Source: a virus. From it: a DNA stretch of 58,222 nucleotides. Made by a program: the position numbers and the translations under genes. The notes under the pieces are model-generated. The model did no database searches, was not told where the DNA came from, and was given only the letters and a program-made list of their open reading frames with translations. This document shows positions 5,905 to 51,058 of the stretch, piece by piece; positions within the stretch are counted from its first letter, which is position 1, and every line of letters begins with the position of its first letter. The DNA lies in IMG/VR virus record IMGVR_UViG_3300011441_000010, one strand, 5' to 3'.

Positions 5905-6575
5905 CTGAAGATGAGGTCTGGTACGACGGGACCTCGGGCGATCCAACCGTTGTCTGGTATGACGGCGGGGGCACTACCGGGTGGGCGGTCTTCTCCGTCC
6001 ACCCGGACGCGCTAACGGACCCTGAGTGCTTTGTGATGGATAACGTGACGTTCTTCGCGTGTGGGGAGTTCTACGGCAACGAGTTCATGCAGGTGGACCA
6101 GATGATCGCCCTCGCGGAGCTATGGCCCGGGGCGGCTCTCGGTGTAGAGCATTGGATCCTGTACGACACCCAGAAGGACCGCAAGGATGAGAACCTGACC
6201 AGCCTGGTCCGGATCAACGCGGCCTTCCGCTACGGACTCCACTCGCGGGCTATGCTGCGCCAGCACTACGCCGATAAGGGTGGGGCAATGATGCCAACCT
6301 TGCTCGGGGAGGGGGGTGCACCGGTGAAGCGGCCGATCCCCGAGGTCTACCGCCAGACAGCAAAGCTTGGGGTGCATGATATGCCGGAGGCTGCGCTCCA
6401 CTCCGCAACGTACCAGGGGAAGTCCCTCTACATCCTCACGAGGGGGAGCGAGCATGCCCGCGACGCGGCCCGTCACGGGATGACCTTCCTCAAGCGCCTG
6501 AAGGGGAACCCGAAGCTCCGCGCAGAAGCCTTCCCGGCCCTCGCGAGGCTCTCAGAGACCCCTTCAGCGGCGTAG
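5901..6575 (+). CDS. RuvC-like Holliday junction resolvase
   Basis: ATG 5901. VWYDGGGTTGWAVF (catalytic Asp region), ALGVEHW (Glu) and HARDAARH near the C-terminus resemble RuvC-fold resolvase motifs. Confidence 0.6.
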   Translation: MTEDEVWYDGTSGDPTVVWYDGGGTTGWAVFSVHPDALTDPECFVMDNVTFFACGEFYGNEFMQVDQMIALAELWPGAALGVEHWILYDTQKDRKDENLTSLVRINAAFRYGLHSRAMLRQHYADKGGAMMPTLLGEGGAPVKRPIPEVYRQTAKLGVHDMPEAALHSATYQGKSLYILTRGSEHARDAARHGMTFLKRLKGNPKLRAEAFPALARLSETPSAA

Positions 6576-6605
6576 AGTTCAGCCCCCGGAACGCGAGGAG
6601 CCTAC

Positions 6606-9242: not shown

Positions 9243-9298
9243 AGGTCGGTCTATCAGGGTCGGTCTAGTAGTCCAGGCCAGACCGACCCTAGACCGAC
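9233..9298. repeat. Iteron-like cluster of the motif GGTCGGTCTA: 3 direct plus 2 inverted copies
   Basis: GTCGGTCTA at 9233-9241. GGTCGGTCTA at 9244-9253 and 9258-9267. Inverted AGACCGACC at 9280-9288 and TAGACCGAC at 9290-9298. Confidence 0.75.
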
Positions 9299-9309
9299 TT
9301 GGAAACCGA

Positions 9310-9485
9310 ACCCAGTCTACAGCAAATGCCCTGGTCAAACCTATTACAAGTACTATATTAGTCTGGGTAGACTGGGTATATACCCTACGGGTTCATATCC
9401 GCGAGAATAGGGTTGATGCCCTGGTAGAGCGGTCGGGGGATACGGCTATGCAAGATTTGAATACGAAAAAATGAAACCCAGTCTA
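9310..9485. repeat. Second repeat set, ACCCAGTCTA(C), flanking an AT-rich stretch
   Basis: ACCCAGTCTAC at 9310-9320, its reverse complement GTAGACTGGGT at 9367-9377, and ACCCAGTCTA at 9476-9485. It shares the GTCTA core with the first set. Confidence 0.65.
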
Positions 9486-9857
9486 AGATCGACTAGGAGA
9501 GCGTCTGTGCAACTCGTCCGAATTCGGAGCGGCTGGAATAGACAGGGAAGCAAATGGTATCCGGGTTCTCCGCCTATGGCAGTGCTTATGGATGCGAAGA
9601 GGATCAGTCGGCATAGCGGAGAGAATTCGGTTGCCTCTTGGCTGGACCATTGCTACATGGCCGTGGATGAGGAGACGGGGGAGCAGGTCTGGGTGTCGGA
9701 GCCCTATAGCCTTGGTAATGATTTCCAAGATGATGCGAGTCTCCTCCGGCAGAGTGGATTCCGGGTGGACGTCAGTCCAGAGTTCCTTTCCTGGAGGCAT
9801 TCGAATCGTGCAATCGTGGTCGTTGTTCAGCGGGTAGCGGAGGGTAATGGCAAGTAG
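9471..9857 (+). CDS. hypothetical protein in a lower-GC island (start uncertain: 9471 or 9576)
   Basis: 128-aa ORF, no Shine-Dalgarno seen, composition atypical for the genome. Confidence 0.4.
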   Translation: MKPSLRSTRRASVQLVRIRSGWNRQGSKWYPGSPPMAVLMDAKRISRHSGENSVASWLDHCYMAVDEETGEQVWVSEPYSLGNDFQDDASLLRQSGFRVDVSPEFLSWRHSNRAIVVVVQRVAEGNGK

Positions 9858-9922
9858 GTAGCGTACAGTAATGGTTGCTGAGAGTAACTACAACGACAGT
9901 TCTAGAACTGTGGGGTATTGGT

Positions 9923-10198
9923 ATGGTTTACAGACCATCTGTCGGGGAGACGGAGTTTGGCGGAGTCGCCGGACCGTTCCCAGAGCAGCAGAGATTGGCG
10001 CCCTCGCTACAGCAGGAGATGTGGGCGGACTACGCCACTGATGAGGCGGGAGGGCAGGATGCCGATGGCGGCGACAAGTCCTCGCCGGAGTGGGGTGCGG
10101 ACAACATCGGCCGTCCGCGCGACTCGTTCAGCATCATGAGCCCGGAGCCGGACCTCTCGCAGGTTGCGCCCTGGAACGGTGAGGCGGAGGGCGAGTGA
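9923..10198 (+). CDS. acidic hypothetical protein (start 9875 or 9923)
   Basis: Tracked ORF 9875-10198. The stop overlaps the GTG start of dcd. Confidence 0.4.
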   Translation: MVYRPSVGETEFGGVAGPFPEQQRLAPSLQQEMWADYATDEAGGQDADGGDKSSPEWGADNIGRPRDSFSIMSPEPDLSQVAPWNGEAEGE

Positions 10199-35217: not shown

Positions 35218-35571
35218 ATGCCGCTTGAGATGAACACCCGAGGACTCGTGGCGCTTGCGCTGCAGTTCCTCCTCCCGTTGCTCGTCGGCCTGCTGACGAA
35301 GCAGAGCTGGACGCCGGGGCTGAAGGCTGTGCTGCTCCTCGCGCTGACCGCCGTGACGCAATTCCTGGTGCAGCTACAGGACTTCCTGACCGGGCCGGAC
35401 GGCTCGCGCTTCGACTGGCAGAGCGTCGCCTACGCGGTGCTGATCGGGTTCGTGGTATCCGTCGCCACGCACTTCGGGCTCTGGAAGCCGACCGGAGCCG
35501 CTGCGACCGCGCAGATGAGCTTGGTGAACGACGGCCACTCGGACGACTACCCGGCAAGTCGCCGACGCTGA
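35218..35571 (+). CDS. multi-pass membrane protein (holin-like)
   Basis: 117 aa with 3 hydrophobic helices. Last gene before a strong terminator. Confidence 0.55.
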   Translation: MPLEMNTRGLVALALQFLLPLLVGLLTKQSWTPGLKAVLLLALTAVTQFLVQLQDFLTGPDGSRFDWQSVAYAVLIGFVVSVATHFGLWKPTGAAATAQMSLVNDGHSDDYPASRRR

Positions 35572-35584
35572 TCGTTCGCCCTCC

Positions 35585-35622
35585 GCAGAGCCCCCGGTAC
35601 CCTCCTCGGCCGGGGGCTCTGC
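35585..35622 (+). terminator. intrinsic terminator ending the structural/lysis transcription unit
   Basis: GCAGAGCCCCCGG (35585-35597) pairs with CCGGGGGCTCTGC (35610-35622), followed by CATGTTTG. Confidence 0.8.
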
Positions 35623-35648
35623 CATGTTTGCGCTGGTAGTTTGTGGCA

Positions 35649-35664
35649 TCCTAGGACGCTAGGA
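35649..35664. promoter_or_regulatory. 16-bp palindromic operator-like site TCCTAG-GACG-CTAGGA
   Basis: Perfect 6-bp inverted half-sites with a 4-bp spacer, preceded by CA. Same architecture as 39736-39751 and 43670-43685. Confidence 0.55.
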
Positions 35665-35718
35665 CAATGCAAAAGATCTTAGAAATTTGTTGCTCTGCAT
35701 GGGGTTTCGGTTTCGGGG

Positions 35719-35775
35719 TAGACGCGGCACCAACCGTAGGCTAGAGTTGTACTTGTGAGGGAGTGAAGTTCTCCC
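35719..35775 (+). promoter_or_regulatory. promoter-like TAGACG-N17-TAGAGT plus leader hairpin GGGAG-TGAAGTT-CTCCC
   Basis: -35-like 35719-35724, -10-like 35742-35747, hairpin 35759-35775, ATG at 35800. Confidence 0.55.
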
Positions 35776-35799
35776 GGCCAAGCGAACAAGGGGATTCAG

Positions 35800-36354
35800 A
35801 TGAACCAGGTCAGCATCGTCAAGGGAATCGTCCGGGGCTACTTCGCCGGAGCGCTCGCCCTCTCCGCCACCCACACGATCCACTCTTTCGAGAAGCTCGG
35901 GCTGGACACCGGCGAGCAGTACGTCACCCCGCTCGCCATCGACGGAATCGCCATCCTCGGGCTCATCATGCGGGGCGAGAAGTGGTCCACCGATACCCGC
36001 AAGATCGGCCTCCGCATCCAGATCGGGGCAGGCGCCCTCCAGCTCGCAGCGAACGTCTACGCCGCCAGCAGCACGGGCGGGATGATCCTCGGGGTGCTCG
36101 TCGTAGCGCTCTACCTCCTCGCCGAGTGGCTCTCGGGCCGGATGGTTACCCGGGACAGCGAACTCGCAGCGGAGGCGCTCGCGGAGGCGCTCTCGATCGC
36201 TCGGGCAGAAGAGGCTCGGGTCCAGGCCGAGAAGGACGCTCGGAACGAGGCAGCGCGGGTCCGCCGCCAGGCCGCCCGGACCGCCAAGCACAGCGCGGAG
36301 GTCTCGGAGGCTCGCCGGATCGGCCGGGCCAAGAGGAACCTCCAGACCGCCTAG
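35800..36354 (+). CDS. DUF2637-like membrane protein with basic coiled-coil tail
   Basis: 184 aa with 4 hydrophobic helices. The PLAIDGIAILG pattern recalls actinobacterial DUF2637 proteins. Confidence 0.55.
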   Translation: MNQVSIVKGIVRGYFAGALALSATHTIHSFEKLGLDTGEQYVTPLAIDGIAILGLIMRGEKWSTDTRKIGLRIQIGAGALQLAANVYAASSTGGMILGVLVVALYLLAEWLSGRMVTRDSELAAEALAEALSIARAEEARVQAEKDARNEAARVRRQAARTAKHSAEVSEARRIGRAKRNLQTA

Positions 36355-36365
36355 GAGCTACCGAG

Positions 36366-36389
36366 AAGCCCCCTCTTCGGAGGGGGCTT
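36366..36389 (+). terminator. intrinsic terminator
   Basis: AAGCCCCCTC-TTCG-GAGGGGGCTT followed by TCTC. Confidence 0.8.
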
Positions 36390-36445
36390 TCTCGCGTCCG
36401 GGATACTTAGCGCAGCCCTCTCAGAGCCCCTCTAAGGAGATCCGC

Positions 36446-36898
36446 ATGCGCTTCCTACCTCGCCCCTCCGGTCCGGCCGAAGAGGGTTCTGCAGCCATCT
36501 GGGAGCGTCTAGTCCACGTCGAGAGCATGGCCCAGGAGCGCGACCTTAGGTACCAGCAGCGATTCGACGCGCAGAACACCGCGCTCGATGCGGCCCGGGT
36601 GGCGGCGAAGGAGGGCGTTACCACCGCGCTCATCGCGGCAGAGAAAGCCGTGGACAAGGCCAACATCGCCAACGAGAAGCGTTTTGAGGGGGTCAACGAG
36701 TTCCGCCAGACGCTCGCCGATCAAGCGCGCGACCTCATGCCCCGGGCAGAGTGCGAGCAGCGGCTAACCCAGCTATCGACCCAGATCGCAGCGCTTACGG
36801 GCTCCTCGCGAGCCGGAGCTACGGCGCTCTTCGGTTGGATCGTCGGGGCGGTCGGATTGGTCGCGACCCTTCTTGCGGTTACCGGAGTTCTCGGCTAG
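36446..36898 (+). CDS. coiled-coil protein with C-terminal TM anchor
   Basis: 150 aa, SD AAGGAGA, C-terminus ALFGWIVGAVGLVATLLAVTGVLG. Confidence 0.6.
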   Translation: MRFLPRPSGPAEEGSAAIWERLVHVESMAQERDLRYQQRFDAQNTALDAARVAAKEGVTTALIAAEKAVDKANIANEKRFEGVNEFRQTLADQARDLMPRAECEQRLTQLSTQIAALTGSSRAGATALFGWIVGAVGLVATLLAVTGVLG

Positions 36899-36947
36899 CG
36901 ATTTGGGCCGAAGAGGGTAGAGTTGCTCTTAGGCGGGAAGTTCCGCC
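36896..36947 (+). promoter_or_regulatory. promoter-like TAGCGA-N16-TAGAGT plus leader hairpin GGCGG-GAAGTT-CCGCC
   Basis: -35-like 36896-36901 (overlaps the upstream stop), -10-like 36918-36923, hairpin 36932-36947, ATG at 36968. Confidence 0.55.
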
Positions 36948-36967
36948 CCGGAGCGAGGAGAGCGAAG

Positions 36968-37333
36968 ATGGCGAAAACCGAGACCCACCGCTGCGTTGGC
37001 GACGAGAAGGAGTGCGAGTACCCGGCCGTCTGCGGGGATTGCGGGCGGAGCGCGACCCCGGAGAACCCGGTTCTGGTGACCTTTACCCCCGGGCCGGACC
37101 CGGAGGGGAGCGAGTTCGTTTGCGAGTATTGCCGGAGCTACGCGGGCGACTCGGACGCGATCGACGCCCGCAAGATCCTCCCGCACGGTCCGGCCCGGTA
37201 CGTCGAGAATCCGGAGACGGGAGAGGGCGCCTACGCCGCTACCACGGAGGACGGGTGCCCGGTCCTCGCGTCCGGCGCGATCGAGGGCTGCTCGTGCGGC
37301 GAATGCGAGGGGCGGGAGGACTTCGCCGAGTAG
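36968..37333 (+). CDS. Cys-rich hypothetical protein
   Basis: ATG 36968 after GAGGAGAG. Carries CVGDEKECEYPAVCGDCG and later CEYC / CSCGEC pairs. Confidence 0.6.
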   Translation: MAKTETHRCVGDEKECEYPAVCGDCGRSATPENPVLVTFTPGPDPEGSEFVCEYCRSYAGDSDAIDARKILPHGPARYVENPETGEGAYAATTEDGCPVLASGAIEGCSCGECEGREDFAE

Positions 37334-37339
37334 AAAGTT

Positions 37340-37365
37340 GGCCCCGGGGGTAGCGCCCCGGGGCC
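37340..37365 (+). terminator. GC-rich hairpin
   Basis: GGCCCCGGGG (37340-37349) pairs with CCCCGGGGCC (37356-37365). It overlaps the next promoter-like motif. Confidence 0.55.
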
Positions 37366-37405
37366 CACCCGCGTATAGTGGTAGTTGAGGGGCTGAAGTT
37401 GCCCC
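37351..37405 (+). promoter_or_regulatory. promoter-like TAGCGC-N17-TATAGT plus leader hairpin GGGGC-TGAAGTT-GCCCC
   Basis: -35-like 37351-37356, -10-like 37374-37379, hairpin 37389-37405, ATG at 37425. Confidence 0.55.
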
Positions 37406-37424
37406 CGGAGCGAAGGAGCCAGAG

Positions 37425-38390
37425 ATGTTCAAGCACCCCTACTGCGGCGGACAGCACGAGACCGTAGGCCAGGCCCGGAACTGCGAGGCCGCGAACACCC
37501 CCGAGGTAGCCGCAGGCGCGCGGGCAATCCGCGAGTCGCAGAGCGTCGAGGAGGTCTGGCCGTGGGCAACCGACGCCAAGACGGAGCGCCCCGCCCAGAA
37601 GCGCTTCGAAGACCGAAACCGGACGAAGGGCGACGCCAAGAAGTACGCTCGCCCGTTCACGATGGGCATCGCCTACGCGCAGGCTCTCCGGGACGGTACC
37701 GCTCCGGCTCCGGTCGAGGAGCCCGCTTTCGTCGCCCCGCCGCAGAACCACTTCCAGGCCGCCATCGCCAGCGAGTGGGACGCCCCCACCACCCCCTCTT
37801 GCTCCGGGCGGAACTCCGAGGGCACCCGACGCGGCTACGGCCAGGCGACGGAGGGGATGGAGCGGTTCGTTCGCATCCTTCTCGAAGAGCGCGACTGGGA
37901 GCACGCGATCGACCCGCAGAGCGCGAACGGCGAGGCCATCTCGGACCTCGGGAACGGTCTCCCCATCTCCTTCCCGGCAGCCCGCCTCCTCATCGAACTC
38001 CTCAAGACCCTCCCCAAGCACGGCGCCCAGGCCGCTCCGGCGACCTCCGCCCCGAAGAACGTCCAGCCGTGGAAGACCCTTTCGGAGAAGGTTCCGGCCG
38101 GGTACTACGGGCTCCAGGACCAGGACGGCAAGAACCACTTCTATCGCGTCTCGGTCGGCCGGAACGGGTTCTTCAAGATCCAGGAGCAGGCATCGAGCGA
38201 CCTCTACTTCATCCCGATCCTCCGCTACGCCGTCATCCTGGAGGCGATCCTCGCCTACGGGCTCGACAAGGCGGGCAAGTTCTACGCCACCGAGACCTCG
38301 CGCTGCCGGAAGTGCAACCGGGTTCTCACCGACAACACCGGAAACCCGTACTTCGAGATGGGATACGGCCCGGACTGCGGAGGCAAGTAG
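37425..38390 (+). CDS. hypothetical protein with C-terminal C-x2-C...GYGPDCGG zinc-ribbon-like (DUF6011-like) motif
   Basis: 321 aa, C-terminus SRCRKCNRVLTDNTGNPYFEMGYGPDCGGK. Confidence 0.6.
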   Translation: MFKHPYCGGQHETVGQARNCEAANTPEVAAGARAIRESQSVEEVWPWATDAKTERPAQKRFEDRNRTKGDAKKYARPFTMGIAYAQALRDGTAPAPVEEPAFVAPPQNHFQAAIASEWDAPTTPSCSGRNSEGTRRGYGQATEGMERFVRILLEERDWEHAIDPQSANGEAISDLGNGLPISFPAARLLIELLKTLPKHGAQAAPATSAPKNVQPWKTLSEKVPAGYYGLQDQDGKNHFYRVSVGRNGFFKIQEQASSDLYFIPILRYAVILEAILAYGLDKAGKFYATETSRCRKCNRVLTDNTGNPYFEMGYGPDCGGK

Positions 38391-38397
38391 CGCTCCG

Positions 38398-38423
38398 GCG
38401 GGCGGGGCTCCGGCTCCGCCCGC
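38398..38423 (+). terminator. intrinsic terminator
   Basis: GCGGGCGGGGC-TCCG-GCTCCGCCCGC followed by TTTACTT. Confidence 0.7.
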
Positions 38424-38477
38424 TTTACTTCCGACCAACCGACGCGTAGGATGTACCTAGGTCGCTGAAGTTGCGGC
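38424..38477 (+). promoter_or_regulatory. promoter-like TTTACT-N17-TAGGAT plus leader hairpin GTCGC-TGAAGTT-GCGGC
   Basis: -35-like 38424-38429, -10-like 38447-38452, hairpin 38461-38477 (one G-U pair), ATG at 38498. Confidence 0.55.
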
Positions 38478-38497
38478 CACGACAAGGGGAGCAAACC

Positions 38498-39559
38498 ATG
38501 ACCGCCGAGACCTCCATCCCGAGCAACACGAGCCTCGACAACGCGATGCGGAAGATCGCAGCGCTTCTGGAGACCGCCGAGAGCTACGCCCGAGACCCCA
38601 AGACGGCCGAGACCGCAGCGACGTACCGCGCGAAGGCCGAGAGCCTCATTCGGGACTACCGGGTCAAGGAGGAGAACCTCCTTCGGACCCAGGTCAGCGC
38701 GTCGCTCCCGATCTCCCGGGACATCCCGATCGGGATGCGGATGTGGGAGACCCACCTAAGCGCCATCCTCCAGGACATCGTCTCCCACGTCGGCGCACGG
38801 ATTGCAATCCGGTGGGAGGGCGGCTCGGTCGGGTACGCCGGAGTGGTCGTCGGCTATGACATGGATATCCGGCTCGCGGAGATGATCTTCAGCGCCGCCA
38901 AGCTCGCGTTCCTCGCGACCCTGGACCCGACGTACGACGCCAGCCTCAGCGACACGGAGAACATCTACCGGCTCCGTTCCTCCGGGATGGACCGCCAGGC
39001 TATCGCGGAGAAGGTTTTCGGCCAGCGCGGCCACTCCCAGGGCATCCGAGTCGGCAGGATCTACGCCGAGCAGTGTGCTCTCCGGGGCGAAGAGGCCACC
39101 GCGTCCGGGCGGGGCTTCTCCCGCGACGTCTACCGGGAGGCATTCGCTCGGGAGTTCGTGTGGGCGATCGACGTTCGGCTCCAGCGCGCTCGCGACGCAG
39201 CCGACTCCGTGGGCGGGGCACTCGTCCTCCCGGAGCGCAAGGCGCGCGTCGATGAGGCGTTCTACGCGCTGTTCCCGAACTTCCGCCCGCCCACCGAGGA
39301 GGAGAAGGCCGCGCGGAAGGCCGCGCGTGAGGCGGAGGAGGCAGAGGCAGCTCTCAACCCGCAGCCCGCCCCGAAGGTCAAGCCGATGACGGCGGCTCGC
39401 CGCAGGGAACTCAACCGCAAGTACGGCTCGCGGTCGGCGACCGCAGCGAGCCGGGCAGCGGAGGCAGCCGCCGGACGGGTAGACCTCGCTCGGGCACCGC
39501 AGGCGGACCGGATCGAGGACAACGGGGCGAGCGGCACCGCCGGAGCGATCGGGGGCTAG
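38498..39559 (+). CDS. hypothetical protein with DUF2786-like N-terminal helical motif
   Basis: ATG 38498 after AAGGGGAG. MRKIAALLETAESYARDPKTAETAATYRAKAESLIRDY pattern. Confidence 0.6.
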   Translation: MTAETSIPSNTSLDNAMRKIAALLETAESYARDPKTAETAATYRAKAESLIRDYRVKEENLLRTQVSASLPISRDIPIGMRMWETHLSAILQDIVSHVGARIAIRWEGGSVGYAGVVVGYDMDIRLAEMIFSAAKLAFLATLDPTYDASLSDTENIYRLRSSGMDRQAIAEKVFGQRGHSQGIRVGRIYAEQCALRGEEATASGRGFSRDVYREAFAREFVWAIDVRLQRARDAADSVGGALVLPERKARVDEAFYALFPNFRPPTEEEKAARKAAREAEEAEAALNPQPAPKVKPMTAARRRELNRKYGSRSATAASRAAEAAAGRVDLARAPQADRIEDNGASGTAGAIGG

Positions 39560-39575
39560 CCGGTAGGATCGGCAC

Positions 39576-39617
39576 GGGGAGGGGCGACGTCCGGAGCGGG
39601 ACGGGTCGCCCCTCCCC
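39576..39617 (+). terminator. intrinsic terminator
   Basis: GGGGAGGGGCGAC (39576-39588) pairs with GTCGCCCCTCCCC (39605-39617), followed by TGTTTGC. Confidence 0.75.
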
Positions 39618-39710
39618 TGTTTGCTAGGGGTGCCGTTTGAGTGGTCTCATTTGGCCAGAGACTGGCCGGACCCCAGTTTTGGACCTCGGGTATGGGTAGG
39701 AGCATTTCAG

Positions 39711-39731
39711 CCATTTTACCTGGTAAAATGG
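39711..39731. repeat. AT-rich perfect palindrome CCATTTTACC-T-GGTAAAATGG
   Basis: 10-bp arms read directly. It sits 5 bp upstream of the operator-like site. Confidence 0.7.
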
Positions 39732-39735
39732 GGCA

Positions 39736-39751
39736 TCCTAGGGCGCTAGGA
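39736..39751. promoter_or_regulatory. 16-bp palindromic operator-like site TCCTAG-GGCG-CTAGGA
   Basis: Same half-sites and spacing as 35649-35664, preceded by CA and followed by AGCAACT. Confidence 0.55.
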
Positions 39752-39769
39752 AGCAACTCCGGCGCTCCA

Positions 39770-39777
39770 TCCTAGGA
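39770..39777. promoter_or_regulatory. collapsed operator-like palindrome TCCTAGGA (no spacer)
   Basis: CATCCTAGGAAGCAACT repeats the flanks of the 39736 site (CTAGGAAGCAACT at 39746-39758 and 39772-39784). Confidence 0.4.
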
Positions 39778-39817
39778 AGCAACTGCAAACAATCTTGAAC
39801 AAAGTTTGGGAAACCCC

Positions 39818-39865
39818 TTCCCATCCTGGGAGTCGACGCGTAGCTTTATTGGTGTAAGGTTCACC
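39818..39865 (+). promoter_or_regulatory. promoter-like TTCCCA-N17-TAGCTT plus leader hairpin GGTG-TAAGGTT-CACC
   Basis: -10-like 39841-39846, hairpin 39851-39865 (loop variant), ATG at 39890. Confidence 0.45.
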
Positions 39866-39889
39866 CGGAACGAGGCCAAGGAGCCCGAG

Positions 39890-40486
39890 ATGTCGAAGAA
39901 CCTCTGCCAGGATGGTCAGAACTGCCAGCGTCCGATCGGCTCCGGCCCGGGGAACGACGCGGTTTACGCCAAGTCGGTCAAGATGTGTAACCCGCACGCG
40001 ACGGAGGCGGGCTACGAAAACGAGCACAGCGACTACGGCCACGAGACCTTCGAGACCCTCACGGTTCGCAAGTCCTCCTTCAAGACCAAGGCCGAACTCG
40101 ACGCGTACAAGGCCCAGCTTCGCGAGGAGACCGCCCGCTGCTGGATCTGCCACCCGGAGCTCAACGAGGCCACCAAGCCCTACACGACCCGCCAGGGCAC
40201 GAGCCGCGCCGGAATCGTCATCCACGTCACGATCCGGGCAGCGGGCGAGACGAAGGCAGCCGAGACCCAGGCCCAGATCGAGGCCATCGGCGGAGAGGGC
40301 GAGTTCAAGTTCAAGATCGCCACCGCCAAGAAGACGGGCGAGGTCGCCTTCACCGCGACCGGGGGCAAGCAGGAGTTCATCCTCTTCTGGGACGCCCGGG
40401 GCCGGTTCATCGGCGGCTCGGTTCGGGAAAACGGCAAGACCCGCAAGGTCCGTAACGTCGCCGAAGTCCTCCGCATCGCCTCCTAG
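39890..40486 (+). CDS. hypothetical protein
   Basis: ATG 39890 after AAGGAG. 198 aa, in-frame in tracked ORF 39806-40486. Confidence 0.6.
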   Translation: MSKNLCQDGQNCQRPIGSGPGNDAVYAKSVKMCNPHATEAGYENEHSDYGHETFETLTVRKSSFKTKAELDAYKAQLREETARCWICHPELNEATKPYTTRQGTSRAGIVIHVTIRAAGETKAAETQAQIEAIGGEGEFKFKIATAKKTGEVAFTATGGKQEFILFWDARGRFIGGSVRENGKTRKVRNVAEVLRIAS

Positions 40487-40497
40487 GTCCGGAGGGC

Positions 40498-40519
40498 GGG
40501 GCTCCTCCTCGGAGGAGCC
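40498..40519 (+). terminator. hairpin GGGCTCCTC...GAGGAGCCC
   Basis: Near-perfect palindrome read directly, no U tract. Confidence 0.45.
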
Positions 40520-40554
40520 CGGCCCAGGACGCCTAGTAGGACAAGGGGATCACG

Positions 40555-40725
40555 ATGGAACAGGAACTCTACCACGCGCTCAAGGCGATCGAGTCTCGCG
40601 ACCCGGACGGCGGAGAGCGGGAGCCTACGGAGGCCGCGTACCTCTACCACGAGAAGTGGGCGGTCGAGACCTTCGGCCGGGAGGTCTGGGAGCGGTACGC
40701 GGCAGGGAGTTGGGAGCCCCAGTAG
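40555..40725 (+). CDS. small hypothetical protein (56 aa, below the ORF-track cutoff)
   Basis: ATG 40555 after ACAAGGGGA, the same SD context as neighbouring genes. Hand translation MEQELYHALKAIESRDPDGG...AAGSWEPQ, stop at 40723-40725. Confidence 0.45.
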   Translation: MEQELYHALKAIESRDPDGGEREPTEAAYLYHEKWAVETFGREVWERYAAGSWEPQ

Positions 40726-40736
40726 AACGGCCAGAC

Positions 40737-40752
40737 AGCCCCCTCGGGGGCT
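40737..40752 (+). terminator. short hairpin AGCCCC-CTCG-GGGGCT
   Basis: Read directly, followed by CTTCCC. Confidence 0.5.
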
Positions 40753-40811
40753 CTTCCCATACCCGAGGTACCCCCGGGCGATCCGGCCCGGCAGAAGCCA
40801 CTACAAAGGGC

Positions 40812-40866
40812 TAGCCATATTCGCCATCCTCGCGTAGAGTTGGCCTTAGCGCCGGGAAGTACCGGC
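40812..40866 (+). promoter_or_regulatory. promoter-like TAGCCA-N17-TAGAGT plus leader hairpin GCCGG-GAAGTA-CCGGC
   Basis: -35-like 40812-40817, -10-like 40835-40840, hairpin 40851-40866, ATG at 40886. Confidence 0.55.
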
Positions 40867-40885
40867 CGAGACCCGAGGAGCCGAA

Positions 40886-41401
40886 ATGCTTTCCAAGACC
40901 TCCAGCAGCCGCAAGATCCGGGCCATCGAGATCCGTACCAACCCGGCGACCGGGAAGCGCTTCACCAAGGCGGAGTTCATCGCCATCCTAGCGAAGAACG
41001 CCAGCGCGCTCTACGCTCGCCAGCTTACCCGCTACACGCTCGCTGACCTCCAGCAGAAGGTCGACCAGCGGATCAAGTACGACACGACCCGCTACGCGGT
41101 CCAGAAGGTCGCTACCGGCTCGATTCACTCCTTCGACTTCCAGGCCGACATCTTCGAAGGCCAGTTCGAAATCGTCGGCTACGACACCGCGACCGGGGAC
41201 TACACCGCCGCGTACCTCGCCCCGAACGACCGGGTCATCGAGGCCATCATCGCATCCGCCGAAAACGGCTCCTACTACGCCGCTCCGGGCGAAGACCGGT
41301 GGGAGCGGGCGGAGCGGGAGATCCAGGAGCGGACCGCCCAGGCCGGGAAGACCTTCAAGATCCGGTTCGTTTCGGCCGCAGCGTACGCCGAGTATTTCTA
41401 G
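40886..41401 (+). CDS. hypothetical protein
   Basis: 171-aa ORF after GAGGAG. Confidence 0.6.
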   Translation: MLSKTSSSRKIRAIEIRTNPATGKRFTKAEFIAILAKNASALYARQLTRYTLADLQQKVDQRIKYDTTRYAVQKVATGSIHSFDFQADIFEGQFEIVGYDTATGDYTAAYLAPNDRVIEAIIASAENGSYYAAPGEDRWERAEREIQERTAQAGKTFKIRFVSAAAYAEYF

Positions 41402-41409
41402 CCGGACCA

Positions 41410-41432
41410 GGGGCGGGAGGGAATCCCGCCCC
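41410..41432 (+). terminator. intrinsic terminator
   Basis: GGGGCGGG-AGGGAAT-CCCGCCCC followed by ATCCGTTTAC. Confidence 0.7.
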
Positions 41433-41446
41433 ATCCGTTTACTCCT

Positions 41447-41500
41447 GCGCAGTTCTACCGTAGATTAGCAGCAGGCCGGGAAGTTACCGGCCACTAGGCA
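41447..41500 (+). promoter_or_regulatory. promoter-like TTTACT-N17-TAGATT plus leader hairpin GCCGG-GAAGTTA-CCGGC
   Basis: -35-like 41447-41452, -10-like 41470-41475, hairpin 41484-41500, ATG at 41512. Confidence 0.55.
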
Positions 41501-41511
41501 AGGGGACCGAA

Positions 41512-42597
41512 ATGCCGAACGTCAAGAAGGGCGCCGGACGGCCAGCAGCTGCAGCGCGCACTGCCAAGGCCGCGCAGACCGAACTGCCACCCATCGCGTC
41601 GGAAAAGATCGACCAGTACGCGAAGACCCACCACCTCAGTCCGGAAGCCACAGCGGCAGCCGAGGTCTCCCCCGGCGCTGAGAGCCCGATCGTGATCGAC
41701 GGAATGGAGCTGCGGGGACAGCAGCGCCGGTACGGCGTGATGATCGTCGCGGAACTCCGTACGGTCGCGAAGGGCCTTGGCGTCAACGGTTATTCGCGGA
41801 TGAAGCGCGGAGAGTTGCTGAACGCCATCCTGGAGTGGGAGCGAGCCGCCGTTACCGTCGCCGACCGCCCGGTCACCTTCCCGGAGCCCTCCCCGGTCGA
41901 CGTCGCGCTGGACGAGGCGCTCCCGACCGTGGAGCAGATTCTCTCTACTCCGCCCAAGATGGTCGGGGACCTCCCGACGCACGTCGGTTGGGAATCCCTC
42001 AAGAAGGCCAAGAGCTACTCCAAGGCGCAGGCCTTCATCGACGCAGCGAACGCGCTCGAATGGGGCGCAGCTCCGACCCAGGCGGATGCCGAGACCGACC
42101 GGATCATGGTGGTCGCTCGCCGGGGTGACCACGAGGTCATCGAGATCGAGTGGTTGGGCGGAGTCTTCCAGGGGGACACATGCTACTACTCGCACTCGGG
42201 GCGGAGCGCGATTAAGCTCCGAAACGCCAGCCACGCGAAGAAGGTCATGGCCATCCCGCCCGCTACGGCTGACCAGGAGGCCGCGAAGGTGTCCGCCCAC
42301 AAACTAACCCGTCCGAGCCGTAAAAGCGTCGCAGAAGCCACTACAGCCCGCCGCAAGGCCCTTCCCTTCGACCCGGAGACCGCGACGGACGAGCAGGTTC
42401 TGGAATTCGTGGCCCACGGGTCGGTCCTGACTTGGACCAATGAGATCTCCGGCGAGATCGACTCGGCTCGTGTCTCCCGCCCCAGCCCCTCGGGGAGGGT
42501 CGGCATCAAGCACGGCACCTCCGGGCGGAGTGTCGAGTTCCTCGGGGAGACTGGGTTCCGGTCGGTGCGGGTCTCCTCGATCGTCTCCGTTCGGTGA
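41512..42597 (+). CDS. hypothetical protein with Rho-N/SAP-like motif
   Basis: 361 aa. MIVAELRTVAKGLGVNGYSRMKRGELLNAIL matches the Rho N-terminal helix-extension-helix pattern. Confidence 0.6.
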   Translation: MPNVKKGAGRPAAAARTAKAAQTELPPIASEKIDQYAKTHHLSPEATAAAEVSPGAESPIVIDGMELRGQQRRYGVMIVAELRTVAKGLGVNGYSRMKRGELLNAILEWERAAVTVADRPVTFPEPSPVDVALDEALPTVEQILSTPPKMVGDLPTHVGWESLKKAKSYSKAQAFIDAANALEWGAAPTQADAETDRIMVVARRGDHEVIEIEWLGGVFQGDTCYYSHSGRSAIKLRNASHAKKVMAIPPATADQEAAKVSAHKLTRPSRKSVAEATTARRKALPFDPETATDEQVLEFVAHGSVLTWTNEISGEIDSARVSRPSPSGRVGIKHGTSGRSVEFLGETGFRSVRVSSIVSVR

Positions 42598-43239: not shown

Positions 43240-43279
43240 CCCTACCGGGGTAGCGCCAGGATAGGCTGCCCCGGTAGGG
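43240..43279 (+). terminator. intrinsic terminator
   Basis: CCCTACCGGGG (43240-43250) pairs with CCCCGGTAGGG (43269-43279), followed by TTTGCTTT. Confidence 0.7.
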
Positions 43280-43280
43280 T
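43251..43280 (+). promoter_or_regulatory. promoter-like TAGCGC-N18-TAGGGT upstream of tRNA-like gene 1
   Basis: Same -35-like hexamer as the 37351 and 50771 copies. The -10-like ends 12 nt before 43293. Confidence 0.4.
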
Positions 43281-43292
43281 TTGCTTTAGCAA

Positions 43293-43367
43293 GCCCCGGC
43301 AGCTCTACGGGAGCACCGCATTAGATCTCGGGTGCGGATGGGCGCGGTTCGAATCCGTGCCGGGGCA
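43293..43367 (+). tRNA. tRNA-like gene 1 with non-canonical anticodon arm (12-nt loop, or 7-bp stem plus 8-nt loop). Isotype undetermined
   Basis: Hand fold: acceptor GCCCCGG/CCGGGGC, D stem GCTC/GAGC, T arm CGCGG-TTCGAAT-CCGTG, discriminator A. The anticodon stem CCGCA/TGCGG encloses TTAGATCTCGGG. Confidence 0.5.
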
Positions 43368-43533
43368 CGGCAGGTAGGGGAACAGAGGGTCCGAGGCACC
43401 GAGACCGAACCACCCGGCAAGAACGGGTAGGCGGGCGGAGTGGTTTACGGAGACAGCGGGAGTAGCGCTCCCCGCCTTGGCTGTATGTGGCCCGGAGGGC
43501 TGTGGCCAGACAAAACCCCCTACCGCTCAACAA

Positions 43534-43606
43534 GTCTCGGTAGCTCAACGGCAGAGCACCCCCGGATAAGGGGGAAGCGCTGCGGGTTCGAATCCCGCCC
43601 GGGGCA
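43534..43606 (+). tRNA. tRNA-like gene 2 with non-canonical anticodon loop (GAU/Ile-like, but a 6- or 8-nt loop and no U33)
   Basis: Hand fold: acceptor GTCTCGG/CCGGGGC (2 G-U pairs), D arm GCTC-AACGGCA-GAGC, T arm GCGGG-TTCGAAT-CCCGC. The anticodon arm is CCCCC-GGATAA-GGGGG. Confidence 0.55.
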
Positions 43607-43669
43607 CACGATGGCGGTCTACCCGAACCCCTGACTGCCGGGGGCACGTCAGTAGGCGGGAGACCGCCA

Positions 43670-43685
43670 TCCTAGCGTCCTAGGA
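43670..43685. promoter_or_regulatory. 16-bp palindromic operator-like site TCCTAG-CGTC-CTAGGA
   Basis: Third copy of the same architecture, preceded by CA. It overlaps the SD region 8 nt upstream of ATG 43694. Confidence 0.5.
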
Positions 43686-46122: not shown

Positions 46123-46151
46123 TAGCTCCACCTCCGGACCTACGGTAGAGT
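46123..46151 (+). promoter_or_regulatory. promoter-like TAGCTC-N17-TAGAGT (no GAAGTT hairpin)
   Basis: -35-like 46123-46128, -10-like 46146-46151, ATG at 46181. Confidence 0.45.
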
Positions 46152-46180
46152 TCGGAGCGAGACGAGGAGGAACGGAAGAC

Positions 46181-46642
46181 ATGGCGAAACCCCCGAGCAC
46201 GGCAGCCGCGAACTACGAAGAGCCGGACTTCAAGCACTACGTCGAGAAGCCCGCCACCGCGACCCAGGAGCACTTCCACGACTGGGTTCTGGACAAGACC
46301 GGCTACGACCCGGCGACGGCGAAGACGAAGGCTGCGGCCTTCGAGGCGGGCATCAGGATCGGCACCAGCCTCCGGGGGCTGCACCAGGCGTCGCCGGAGA
46401 ACCAGGAGCGGCTCGCCGAGCAGCGTGCCGCGTCGGCTGACGCCAAGGCCGCGAAGGAGGCGGAGGCCGCCAACGCTGCCGCTGCCCCGGCGAAGGCCGC
46501 GCCTGCCAAGGCGACGAAGGCTACGAAGGCTGCGGCTCCGGTCGTTCCGCCGGTGGAGACTGCCCCGCCGGTCAAGCGTGCCCCCGCCAAGAAGACCGGT
46601 GGCCGCCGTGCCGCCGCGACGGACGCCCCGGCTCCGTTCTAA
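46181..46642 (+). CDS. DNA-binding-like protein with A/K/P-rich histone-H1-like C-terminal tail
   Basis: ATG 46181 after GAGGAGGAA. The C-terminal 70 aa is AAKEAEAANAAAAPAKAAPAKATKATKAAAP...KRAPAKKTGGRRAAA. Confidence 0.55.
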   Translation: MAKPPSTAAANYEEPDFKHYVEKPATATQEHFHDWVLDKTGYDPATAKTKAAAFEAGIRIGTSLRGLHQASPENQERLAEQRAASADAKAAKEAEAANAAAAPAKAAPAKATKATKAAAPVVPPVETAPPVKRAPAKKTGGRRAAATDAPAPF

Positions 46643-48336: not shown

Positions 48337-48656
48337 TGCCAAGGGGCATCTATCCGAGAAGGACCGGAACGAGCTACAACGCCAAGCATATCCGTGTTCG
48401 GAAGGCTCGCGGTCTCGCCCGGAATCAGGTCTGCGAAAGCTGCCCCGACAAAGCAGCCGAGTGGGCAACCATCAAGGGTCGAGACGGTATGAACCCCGAG
48501 GACTACATGCCGCTCTGCCGCTCCTGCCACCAGAAGTACGACTTCAAGCCCGAGAACATTCAGGACGCGACAGCTGCGAAGATCGGCAGGCCGAGACCTG
48601 ACACGGCTGCTATGAATCGCGCTCGCGCCCACCGCAAGTCCACCGAGGAGGACTAA
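48336..48656 (+). CDS. HNH homing-type endonuclease 1
   Basis: GTG 48336 (TAGTG overlap). CESCPDKAAEW...DYMPLCRSCHQKYD is an HNH pattern. Confidence 0.8.
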   Translation: MPRGIYPRRTGTSYNAKHIRVRKARGLARNQVCESCPDKAAEWATIKGRDGMNPEDYMPLCRSCHQKYDFKPENIQDATAAKIGRPRPDTAAMNRARAHRKSTEED

Positions 48657-49159
48657 TGCCTAGCATCACGATCCCGCGCCAGGCCCGAGGGACGACCGGG
48701 ACCAAGCGTCAGAGCCATGACAACAAGCGCGCCATCAGCCAGATCCGGTCCGCCGGTAAGGCGTGGCGGGCGGAGGAGCGCAAGCGCCGGAGCTACCGCG
48801 ACGCGGGCAGCGTCTCGGTGCCGACCGCGCGTCTGATCATCGAGACGCTCCCGACGTCGCAGAAGCCCTCCTTGGTCTCCGTGTTCGGACAGCTGGGGGT
48901 CGGCGAGACCGCTACGATGCCCGCTCACCGCCTGTCGCCGCGTCAGGGTAGGCGACTGCGGCGCCGTGGGGTCCAGGTCGTGCAGCAGGCCGTCAACGTT
49001 CTGAAGGCCGAGCAGGCACGGCTCGCCAAGGCGGCTCGGGACGAGGAGAGCCGTCAGCTCAAGCTGGGCGTCAAGACCCGGTGCAACGCCCGGACCAAGC
49101 TGGGCCTCCAGTGCCGCAAGTCGGCCGTGGCGGACGGCTACTGCGCGACGCACGGGTAA
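48656..49159 (+). CDS. basic protein with Arg-rich N-terminal part and C-terminal Cys3-His zinc-ribbon-like motif
   Basis: 167 aa. AGKAWRAEERKRRSYRD, and C-terminus CNARTKLGLQCRKSAVADGYCATHG. Confidence 0.55.
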   Translation: MPSITIPRQARGTTGTKRQSHDNKRAISQIRSAGKAWRAEERKRRSYRDAGSVSVPTARLIIETLPTSQKPSLVSVFGQLGVGETATMPAHRLSPRQGRRLRRRGVQVVQQAVNVLKAEQARLAKAARDEESRQLKLGVKTRCNARTKLGLQCRKSAVADGYCATHG

Positions 49160-50232: not shown

Positions 50233-50766
50233 ATGGGCAAGATCAAGTGGAACACCAAGGGCGCCGAAGTCGACGCTGTCGAGCCGAAGGAGCAGGGGGA
50301 AACCTTCGAGCCGTATGACGGTCCGGTGCCCCCCAACAACTCCGTGCTCATCTGCGACGTGAAGTGGGCCCGGGTCACGGAGTTCGCCTCCGGCAACGGC
50401 GGTCTCAAGCTCCTGCTGATCGTGAACGAGCCGGAGGTCTCGCCGAAGAAGCGTTACAACGGCTGCCCCCTCTTCGAGAACCTGGTGGACATCGACACCC
50501 AGGACTGGAAGATTCGCCAGTGGATGGACGCGATCGGCGGCACCGGCAAGGACTGGGACAACTGCGTCACCGAGAAGGACGACCAGGACAACGACGTCAT
50601 CGTCAAGTTCGGCAAGGTGAAGGCCGACGGTCTGAAGGTCCGGATCCAGACGCAGCAGGAGACCTACGACGGCGAGAAGCGTGCGAAGGTGCGCAGCTAC
50701 CTCTCGAAGGCGTCCGCGTCGGCGAGCGCCAGCAGCACCGCAGACGGCGATGAGCCGCCGTTCTAG
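50233..50766 (+). CDS. DUF669-like putative ssDNA-binding protein
   Basis: ETFEPYDGPVPPNNSVLICDVKW...GGLKLLLIVNEP pattern, an acidic C-terminal tip DGDEPPF, and synteny with the Sak4-like ATPase. Confidence 0.5.
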   Translation: MGKIKWNTKGAEVDAVEPKEQGETFEPYDGPVPPNNSVLICDVKWARVTEFASGNGGLKLLLIVNEPEVSPKKRYNGCPLFENLVDIDTQDWKIRQWMDAIGGTGKDWDNCVTEKDDQDNDVIVKFGKVKADGLKVRIQTQQETYDGEKRAKVRSYLSKASASASASSTADGDEPPF

Positions 50767-50770
50767 GGGG

Positions 50771-50800
50771 TAGCGCCAACCCTTAGACGACGGATAGACT
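50771..50800 (+). promoter_or_regulatory. promoter-like TAGCGC-N18-TAGACT
   Basis: GGGGTAGCGCC context is shared with 37347 and 43247. The -10-like is at 50795-50800. Confidence 0.4.
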
Positions 50801-50807
50801 GAAGTCA

Positions 50808-50841
50808 GTGGGGCTGCTCGGCCGGACCCGAGTGGCCCCAC
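50808..50841 (+). terminator. two-tier hairpin with T-rich tail (terminator or leader structure)
   Basis: GTGGGGC-TG-CTCGG-CCGGAC-CCGAG-TG-GCCCCAC followed by ATTTCTCTT. Confidence 0.55.
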
Positions 50842-50854
50842 ATTTCTCTTCCGG

Positions 50855-51058
50855 ATGGTGAGTATGCACGTGCGGCCGACGTTCTTGATGAGTCCGGGGG
50901 ACTTCGTCTCCCACATGGTTCTCCGCCACAATCAGGAGGGCGAACTAGGCGGCCAGACGACGATCAGCGAGCGCTCCGCCCGGGGCGACCGCAAGGCATG
51001 GGAGGCGTATCATGAACGCCTCCACAACACGAAGGAGTACGGCCATGACCACGAGTAA
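50855..51058 (+). CDS. small hypothetical protein (start 50855 or 50864)
   Basis: 67-aa ORF, His-rich C-terminus. Confidence 0.4.
   Translation: MVSMHVRPTFLMSPGDFVSHMVLRHNQEGELGGQTTISERSARGDRKAWEAYHERLHNTKEYGHDHE

Follow-up and report, generated by a model that had tools for sequence, protein, structure and literature searches.

What could be the role of a small hairpin that recurs, with nearly the same loop, in front of one early gene after another in a virus? The question is raised by the virus record IMGVR_UViG_3300011441_000010 (58.2 kb, 64% G+C, nearly all genes on the + strand; here called the window, meaning this whole stretch of DNA). Between 35.7 and 41.5 kb, the window holds seven promoter-proximal hairpins (s1 to s7) with GC-rich stems of 4-6 base pairs (bp) and loops of the form (N)GAAGUN, from which s5 deviates. 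A sequence-only reading had taken them for a selected RNA structure at the extreme 5' end of the transcripts, recognised through its loop. A selected single-strand structure and sequence selection on the loop were both borne out, whereas the position at the extreme 5' end is deduced from promoter geometry.

Covarying stems and a conserved loop

The early regions of nine related metagenomic contigs (L001-L009) and of the cultured phage Onyinye (L010, MN813687.1) were compared with that of the window. A covariance model and a search of relatives had been proposed from the sequence alone; the motif was found in six of the contigs (L001-L005 and L009, with 43-73% identity in the DUF2786 protein). 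These contribute 32 further sites, at which an equivalent cassette precedes the same genes, for a total of 39 sites in 7 genomes. In every relative, the sites keep to the initial ~5 kb of the early arm, the last of them standing at the gene encoding a Rho_N-domain protein; in the window, no copy of the motif lies outside the first ~6 kb of this arm, and all are in sense orientation. An alignment of all 39 sites with MAFFT mis-registered the two loop classes, and the classes were therefore analysed separately. For loops of 7 nucleotides (nt), 91% of cells are paired, double-sided changes are seen in 6/6 pairs and the covariation score is 0.83 versus 0.20 after shuffling. The 6-nt-loop class gave 85.7% of cells paired, double-sided changes in 5/6 pairs and a score of 0.47 versus 0.10. 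The observed score was reached by 0/500 shuffles in either class, and slid controls paired at 27-60%, with 40-60% for the 7-nt-loop class. The compensatory covariation and kept loop first reported for the window hold there, and are much stronger once the relatives are added. Pairing, rather than stem sequence, is the selected feature, as in 5'-terminal stem-loop stabilisers.

How closely is the loop itself kept? The loops follow the formula (U/A)?-GAAGU-N, in which the core A, G and U never vary and the first G is at least 90% conserved; the base after GAAG is U in 37/39 sites, and the next may be A, U, C or G. Before the gene of the DUF2786 protein, the stems are GGUCGC/GCGGCC, UCCGC/GCGGA, GGCGC/GCGCC, GCCCG/CGGGC and UGCCCG/CGGGCG. 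In the alignment of this intergenic region (A6), the TA...T core of the -10, GAAGT and CAAGGGGA, the Shine-Dalgarno sequence (SD), are invariant. The few other invariant columns are found in the upstream stretch of terminator and -35 and at single stem positions, and the core stems read UCGC, CCGC, GCGC or CCCG. Orthologues of s1 have GGGAG/CUCCC or GGAGC/GCUCC stems with an unchanged loop, those of s3 have UGGGGC/GCCCCG (L002) or UGCCCG/CGGGCG (L003), and those of s7 (L001, L003, L004, L005 and L009) combine GAAGUA, GAAGUC or GAAGUG loops with different stems. Where the proteins of orthologous sites share only 43-55% identity, GAAGU is still invariant and the stems have fully turned over. The weakest member of the set is s5, whose variant loop also occurs at the orthologous gene of L003 (UGGUG-UAAGGUU-CACCG).

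This turnover bears on whether the hairpin needs a partner at all. A purely structural 5' stem-loop, with its loop kept by recent spread of the cassette or by an intrinsic folding preference, would account for the unrelated loops in the hairpins of distant relatives. It would also suit the occurrence of identical cassettes before non-homologous genes, which suggests cassette mobility. The same hairpin, GCCGG-GAAGUA-CCGGC, precedes such genes at s6 of the window and at 11949 in L002, 9037 in L004 and 11944 in L005, within a shared cassette TAGAGT/TAGACT ... CTTAGC-GCCGG-GAAGTA-CCGGC. Because an identical cassette is found before non-homologous genes in different genomes, the pattern suggests that genes have been swapped in and out behind it; the window gene at 40886-41401 has no homologue in any relative compared. 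Descent alone, however, would keep the stems at least as well as the loops, the reverse of what is seen at the orthologous sites. GAAGUN is not known as an extra-stable loop class. A hairpin with no partner is judged improbable.

All 39 of the sites (39/39) are in sense orientation. Among the distinct stems there are eight wobble pairs (seven U.G and one G.U), two of them internal; an A.C mismatch interrupts no stem, the stems being delimited by allowed pairs so that A.C pairs are uncountable. A structure in the sense-strand RNA is favoured over a double-stranded DNA site because of the uniform orientation and the wobble pairs. An element acting at the DNA level, be it an operator for a DNA-binding protein, a cruciform or a downstream promoter element, would fit the overlap with about +2 to +20 of the promoters, which is a frequent repressor position. 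We consider it highly improbable, given that the arms vary around a conserved centre, the reverse of protein-bound palindromes, that only one orientation occurs and that wobble pairs are tolerated. The distance from GAAGT to the -10 also varies (13-17 nt), and a separate classical palindrome, TCCTAG-N4-CTAGGA, is available for control at the DNA level. An operator for a dimeric protein in particular was rejected on the variable arms, the invariant centre and the single orientation.

Could such a cluster have arisen by chance? A first-order Markov simulation gave an expectation of 1.09 GAAGT-loop hairpins (stem of at least 5 bp) per strand per 58 kb. In 300 simulations there were never more than 3 in any 6 kb, whereas the window has 6 within 5.7 kb, every one of them intergenic. 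When the 7-nt-loop class was made into a covariance model and both strands of the window were scanned with it, no further site above 20 bits came up on either; the 6-nt-loop sites are scored weakly by it, at 9-13 bits. On these two grounds, a chance origin of the cluster is excluded. In Rfam, the gathering score was reached across the whole window by a transfer RNA (tRNA) alone, and a permissive scan of 35500-41800 gave three sub-threshold matches, all irrelevant. No description of a comparable motif was found in Rfam or in the searched literature. A 5'-leader hairpin or RNA operator is known in kind; the form is new, with 5-7 copies per genome, each on its own early transcript, covarying stems and an invariant GAAGU loop.

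The anatomy of the sites is highly regular (Table 1). All seven hairpins first described are present in the sequence, and the positions of s1, s2, s3, s5 and s6 were right. The s7 hairpin lies ~9 nt to the left of 41484-41500, where it had been placed, and s4, described as 5 bp at 38461-38477, extends to 6 bp with one U.G. Seven genes do carry hairpins; they are not the strictly consecutive series that had been proposed, as the open reading frames (ORFs) 36446-36898 and 40555-40725 have neither a hairpin nor a promoter of their own. The -10 hexamers at the 7/7 sites are all of the form TAnnnT (TAGAGT three times, TATAGT, TAGGAT, TAGCTT and TAGATT), and a -35-like hexamer is located exactly 17 nt upstream of each (7/7). 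These predicted promoters (P1 to P7) match the Streptomyces and mycobacterial type, TTGACN-17-TAGRRT. The layout of P1 is kept in L001, L002, L004, L005 and L009. From s1 to s7, the gaps between -10 and hairpin are 11, 8, 9, 7, 4, 10 and 7 nt, which agrees with the 4-11 nt first given. Hairpin and ATG are 19-24 nt apart, rather than 20-25 nt, with an AAGGGGA or GGAG SD between them. The SD begins 5-13 nt past the hairpin and is not sequestered by it. With 13-17 nt between GAAGT and the -10, the spacing of the loop to both -10 and ATG floats by 4-5 nt; the hairpin is therefore a self-contained module and not part of a fixed DNA site.

Table 1. Predicted promoters, hairpins and terminator-like hairpins of the early block, with positions in the window
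Feature	Position	Strand	Description
P1	35719-35747	+	-35 TAGACG, 17-nt spacer, -10 TAGAGT; actinobacterial-type consensus
s1	35759-35775	+	GGGAG-UGAAGUU-CUCCC, 24 nt before ATG 35800; in minimum-free-energy (MFE) fold
T1, terminator-like hairpin of unit 1	36368-36393	+	GCCCCCUC-UUCG-GAGGGGGC + UUUCUC, read from sequence
P2	36895-36923	+	-35 CTAGCG, 17 nt, -10 TAGAGT
s2	36932-36947	+	GGCGG-GAAGUU-CCGCC, 20 nt before ATG 36968; kept in L001 and L005
P3	37351-37379	+	-35 TAGCGC in loop of upstream hairpin GGCCCCGGGG/CCCCGGGGCC, 17 nt, -10 TATAGT
s3	37389-37405	+	GGGGC-UGAAGUU-GCCCC, 19 nt before ATG 37425; covariance-model score 30.4 bits
T3, terminator-like hairpin of unit 3	38398-38429	+	11 bp + UUUACU; tail is the -35 of P4
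P4	38424-38452	+	-35 TTTACT, shared with the T-tail of T3, 17 nt, -10 TAGGAT
s4	38460-38478	+	GGUCGC-UGAAGUU-GCGGCC, 6 bp including one internal U.G, 19 nt before ATG 38498
Terminator-like hairpin of unit 4	39576-39625	+	13-bp arms + UGUUUGC
P5	39818-39846	+	-35 TTCCCA, 17 nt, -10 TAGCTT; operator-like palindromes upstream
s5	39851-39865	+	GGUG-UAAGGUU-CACC, 4 bp, deviant loop, 4 nt past -10
P6	40812-40840	+	-35 TAGCCA, 17 nt, -10 TAGAGT
s6	40851-40866	+	GCCGG-GAAGUA-CCGGC, 19 nt before ATG 40886
P7	41438-41466	+	-35 TTTACT, 17 nt, -10 TAGATT
s7	41474-41492	+	GGCCGG-GAAGUUA-CCGGCC, 19 nt before ATG 41512 (Rho_N-domain protein)

The hairpin block occupies the first 6 kb past the lysis cassette, among small genes with no assigned function. 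Structural and lysis genes are found at ~12-35.5 kb, and replication genes at ~41.5-58 kb and 1-9 kb. The replication arm encodes the Rho_N-domain protein, a SNF2 helicase, a PD-(D/E)XK nuclease, an AAA_24 ATPase, UDG, Pol III alpha and ThyX, among others. Near-identical DNA is absent from 50,697 cultured phage records, and the closest cultured relatives are actinobacteriophages with ~27-37% protein identity (Onyinye, Leopard, Nocardia phage P3.1 and Gordonia phages). For these reasons, the phage is placed by sequence comparison in an uncultured actinophage lineage. With the DUF2786-like protein (38498-39559) as query, 55 homologous protein clusters were obtained, many of them on metagenomic contigs of 55-58 kb. 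Searches of IMG/VR by protein and by the exact word of site 1 gave no match, nor did a search of GTDB genomes with the helicase, in which neither a prophage nor a host was found.

A proposed protection of the 5' end and handle in the loop

What, then, could the hairpins do? Since each hairpin lies at most 11 nt from its -10 and the spacing floats, its sole positional constraint is the start of the transcript. Such placement can be read as the hallmark of 5'-terminal stem-loops that block decay dependent on the 5' end. It has been shown that 5'-terminal stem-loops stabilise bacterial messenger RNAs (mRNAs), that RppH requires at least 2-3 unpaired 5' nucleotides and that mycobacteria possess both RNase E and RNase J (PMC3997798). 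In the window, a predicted 5' overhang of 1-5 nt is obtained if +1 is assumed to lie 7-8 nt after the -10; for a stabiliser of this kind, about 0-4 unpaired nt would be called for. Stabilisation does not explain an invariant loop, which leads to a model in two parts, a protective hairpin and a loop handle. That the loop is invariant implies that its sequence is recognised, and by a single factor that sees every early message. We tentatively prefer this explanation, a 5'-end protective hairpin with a loop handle for the coordinate control of early messages, and rate it as quite possible, a little short of probable; in it, the transcription starts, the gain in stability and the loop reader are all inferred.

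In this model, each of the seven immediate-early genes would be a self-contained cassette of promoter, stem-loop, short linker, SD and ATG, gene and terminator hairpin, with a host-type promoter that is SigA/HrdB-like. The GC-rich stem-loop of 5-6 bp would begin at about +2 to +6 of the transcript and deny a single-stranded 5' end to the decay machinery, namely an RppH-type pyrophosphohydrolase, RNase E's 5' sensor and RNase J's 5' exonuclease activity. Together with the 3' terminator hairpin, it would yield monocistronic messages capped against exonucleases. The (N)GAAGUN loop would serve as a sequence-specific handle for one trans-acting factor of phage or host, which could treat all early messages as one regulon. 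The factor might, for example, reinforce protection early in infection, or later cleave or unmask the hairpin and so shut off the early genes.

Several observations weigh against this explanation. The start sites were deduced solely from promoter geometry, and none of P1 to P7 was called in a generic sigma-70 scan, which uses the E. coli consensus and is unsuited to a GC-rich phage. At s1, an overhang of 4-5 nt is predicted, which reaches the limit for protection in E. coli. By thermodynamic z-score, the leaders do not stand out significantly, and competing folds exist at s6 and at s5, which is not in the MFE fold. A plain stabiliser needs no conserved loop, and no loop-binding protein was identified: searches of Pfam, PHROGs and PDB sequences with the nine early proteins and 20 others revealed neither an RNA-binding nor an antiterminator domain. 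In addition, TAGAGT promoters occur without a 5' hairpin at 6573 and 46146 of the window (6573-6608, before an 878-aa gene, and 46146-46183, before gene 46181), with short leaders TAGAGTTC...GAGGAG. The hairpin is thus specific to the first early block and not to every TAGAGT promoter.

Both the 5' stabiliser and the operator, which had been named as alternatives in the sequence-only reading, were found to fit the anatomy better than lambda N/nut. Could the hairpin, then, be a translational operator or enhancer only? Here a repressor (compare T4 RegA or gp43, MS2 coat protein and ThrRS) or the 30S subunit would bind the loop and set the translation of early genes, with no role in decay. With its 3' end 19-24 nt from the ATG and 5-13 nt from the SD, the hairpin falls within the extended 30S footprint and leaves the SD free. 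Protein-RNA operators characteristically combine a conserved loop with variable stems, and the loop differs between lineages, as an operator would allow. However, an operator could sit anywhere in the leader and would not require the tight coupling to the -10 (7-11 nt except at s5). Known phage operators usually overlap the SD or AUG, and no candidate repressor was found. A role in translation alone is rather improbable in our view.

Which factor could read the loop, whether for protection or for translation? The Arg-rich protein encoded at 48656-49159, which had been put forward as a speculative partner, has homologues in only two of the six motif-bearing relatives (L003 and L005), and this candidate was not upheld. 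It is missing from 3/5 of the relatives whose DNA spans that position: in L002, L004 and L009, unrelated small genes occupy the syntenic position and the hairpins are present. The L001 contig ends before it. Arg-rich stretches were seen in seven proteins of the window, where they are scattered, unspecific and common for a GC-rich genome. By presence/absence profiling, the genes at 35218, 35800, 36968 and 49205 are restricted to the GAAGU lineage, with no link to RNA. The Rho_N-domain protein encoded at 41512-42597 is the product of the last hairpin-controlled gene in every relative. In a profile search it matched residues 54-136 of M. tuberculosis Rho (E=1.7e-4; the Rho N-terminal/HeH motif), and its AlphaFold model (pLDDT 79) holds the HeH motif and two confidently modelled small beta-barrels. 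When this model was compared with the PDB by Foldseek, nothing better than E=0.13 was obtained; resemblances to Tudor, Sm, Hfq, Rof and WYL folds are weak and are not evidence. Base pairing of the loop with other RNA was also considered. Complementarity to the UUUACUUC terminator tails, to a conserved UCUCUUCCGG leader at ~50845 and to the 3' end or helix 45 of 16S rRNA was rejected as chance, with matches of 4-5 nt at only some sites.

The more distant relatives show which part of the arrangement is older. In L007 and L008 (37-40% identity), the layout of -10, ~8-10 nt, hairpin and SD is kept, and the loops differ: AUCGGA (twice), GAACG and GGUAC in L007, and GCUCG, AACGU and AAGU in L008. 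The promoter-hairpin-SD layout was not found in L006. In Onyinye, at least five early intergenic regions at 40.0-45.3 kb contain a conserved promoter-like word, AGAGTTGCTGGTG or CTAGGTG. Directly after this word comes a hairpin whose stem and loop are site-specific, followed by a conserved (G/T)ATCCAAGAGCGTT or TATCTAGGGCATA, ~60-70 nt before the start codon. No published description of the Onyinye family was found, and this cultured phage, which is grown on M. smegmatis and has an analogous hairpin family, is a possible experimental model. Because the distant relatives keep the layout with other loops, the hairpin right after early promoters is, on this comparison, the older feature and the GAAGU loop a lineage-specific addition. 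The variable-stem hairpins of L007, L008 and Onyinye fit a general role at the 5' end combined with a lineage-specific reader.

A broader proposal can be made, though it is unlikely as a whole: the GAAGU hairpins may supply the cis component of an RNA-guided control system of actinobacterial phages that has yet to be described, in which a loop reader (a protein or RNA polymerase) engages each immediate-early transcript once ~20 nt have emerged. The polymerase could be made resistant to terminators, as in an N/boxB analogue with multiple nut-like sites in phages of high-GC Gram-positive bacteria, or the reader could be a timed switch that removes the 5' protection and destroys all early messages at the early-to-middle transition. 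The lineage-specific loops (GAAGU, AUCGGA in L007 and others in L008) would then be specificity codes that co-evolve with their readers. Whatever their reader, the hairpins amount to a compact RNA motif, backed by covariation, by which an entire temporal class of phage genes is marked, in a lineage of at least ~55 protein clusters and 55-58 kb contigs for which no cultured member, Rfam entry or description was found. If the loop has a reader, it would define a post-transcriptional or antitermination regulon with multiple targets in actinophages, a group in which the control of early genes is poorly understood. If the hairpin is only a stabiliser, the mechanism is ordinary and its deployment unusually regular. 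The cassette is also a natural insulated expression unit that could be borrowed for high-GC hosts such as Streptomyces and Mycobacterium.

Terminator-like hairpins, a possible antitermination and neighbouring elements

Terminator-like hairpins follow every unit of the early block. A generic terminator scan called none on the + strand, and its T-run rule does not suit a GC-rich phage. The promoterless ORFs 36446-36898 and 40555-40725 lie behind such hairpins, and a promoter at 50767-50860 is directly followed by one. These features would fit processive antitermination of the N/boxB or put type, in which the nascent hairpin recruits a phage protein or acts on RNA polymerase, with readthrough of the post-gene terminators as the result. 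The short GC-rich stems, the purine-rich GAAG-containing loop and the closeness to early promoters point the same way, as does one site of L002 and L004, GCGCU-GAAGU-AGCGC, which can be set beside lambda nutL boxB, GCCCU-GAAGA-AGGGC. The loops of boxB may be pentaloops or hexaloops and are read by cognate N peptides (PMC12550061).

Antitermination is nonetheless quite improbable here, and the lambda N/boxB analogy drawn by the sequence-only reading was not established. There is a hairpin and a promoter for each gene, not for each operon, and readthrough is largely unnecessary. With 1-5 nt predicted 5' of the hairpin, no boxA (CGCUCUUA-like) could be transcribed, and TGCTCTTA at s2 lies between -10 and +1 (in the -6 to +1 region). 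The fifth base of the loop is U, where boxB needs A for its sheared G.A pair. The extra base on the 3' side varies among A, U, C and G, and it is in the GAAGUA subset alone that G(..)A could in principle form. The search for a conserved N-like small protein with an arginine-rich motif was negative: Pfam, PHROG and PDB comparisons gave no match to N-like proteins, and the protein of 48656-49159 is absent from L002, L004 and L009.

Other elements of the window were noted alongside the hairpins. Several -35 elements (GGTAGCGCC or GCTAGCGC) lie in the loop of a long GC-rich hairpin after the upstream gene, at 37341-37366, 43249-43257 and 50769-50777 in the window and also in L003 and L004. Examples come from the window (GGCCCCGGGG-GTAGCG-CCCCGGGGCC) and from L003 (GGGGAGGGG-GTAGCG-CCCCTCCCC). 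Other units have a TTTACT -35 that doubles as the T-tail of the upstream terminator. With the -35 in an upstream hairpin loop or terminator tail, terminator and next promoter are therefore physically fused. The unit at 50767-50860, after gene 50233-50766, is conserved in L002 (20150-20265), L003 (11815-11920) and L004 (20445-20535). It consists of a -35 GGTAGCGCC, a -10 TAGACT and a long covarying, terminator-like hairpin with a T-run, and is followed by a conserved TTCTCTTCCGGATGGT just upstream of the next gene. A transcription attenuator or leader is one possibility for this unit, and a small RNA of ~50 nt is another.

The TCCTAG-N4-CTAGGA palindrome has three perfect intergenic copies in the window (~0.01 expected), upstream of P1 (35649-35664), upstream of P5 (39736-39751) and just before the start of the SNF2 helicase gene (43670-43685). 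A half-site with a repeated CTAGGAAGCAACT is present at 39746-39784, and words containing CCTAGG are also found in early intergenic regions of L008 and L009. The palindrome resembles an operator for a dimeric DNA-binding regulator. Between early genes there are also two tRNA genes (43268-43368 and 43534-43607), both preceded by the -35-like word GGTAGCGCC at 43249. The tRNA-Ile(GAU) was called by both ARAGORN and Rfam, and the tRNA-Arg(ACG), unusually long at 101 nt, by ARAGORN only. Finally, iteron-like repeats occur at 9232-9500, within a non-coding stretch of 55% G+C (9243-10195). There, GGTCGGTCTA is present in three direct and two to three inverted copies within 70 nt, and AACCCAGTCTA/TAGACTGGGT in three copies. 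The region is AT-richer with high GC skew, lies just upstream of the small and large terminase region, and is a candidate origin or packaging (cos/pac) site.

Comparison with known systems

How do the GAAGU hairpins compare with regulatory elements described elsewhere? With lambdoid boxB they share a 5-bp GC-rich stem, a purine-rich loop of the GAAG/GAAA type, presumed read-out through the loop, a place on early transcripts near promoters, and loops that are lineage-specific with cognate readers. They differ in the lack of boxA, the 5'-terminal position, the number of seven hairpins per genome with one for each gene, and the (N)GAAGUN loop; in addition, no N-like protein was found, and the presumed host is a high-GC actinobacterium. 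Phage translational operators likewise are small hairpins or leader sites that are read sequence-specifically by a phage protein for post-transcriptional control. Those of MS2/R17 coat protein, T4 gp43 and RegA overlap the SD or AUG and, except for RegA, serve a single gene. The hairpins described here lie upstream of the SD, at the predicted 5' end.

The ANTAR target RNAs are mini-hairpins with hexaloops in which A1 and G4 are read by the protein, and they occur as dual hairpins 5-12 nt apart, the second competing with a terminator (PMC3369931). A short stem with a hexaloop is shared (here G/A-A-A-G-U-N, with G4 invariant). Identity as an ANTAR target was rejected: each leader has a single hairpin, there is no overlap with a terminator, and position 1 is mostly G. 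Repeats of actinobacteriophages (the Cluster O palindrome, Cluster A stoperators and Cluster K start-associated sequences) also occur in many intergenic copies, some with SigA-like promoters. The 17-bp repeat of Cluster O has invariant arms, a variable centre and no orientation preference (PMC4351075). All of these repeats are conserved DNA words, with invariant arms or as asymmetric 13-mers, whereas here the arms covary and the loop alone is conserved. The Onyinye family resembles the GAAGU hairpins in having a promoter word, an immediate hairpin and stems that differ between sites; it differs in its unconserved loops and its flanks (GGTG ... (G/T)ATCCAAGAGCGTT).

Stem-loop stabilisers at the 5' end are also known from the phage T7 gene 10 leader and B. 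subtilis aprE. As in E. coli ompA and papA, the stem is free to vary as long as it is paired, and a 3' terminator hairpin caps the message at its other end (PMC3997798). The loops of such stabilisers are unconstrained; here, GAAGU is invariant across ~50% protein divergence and is carried by 5-7 early transcripts per genome.

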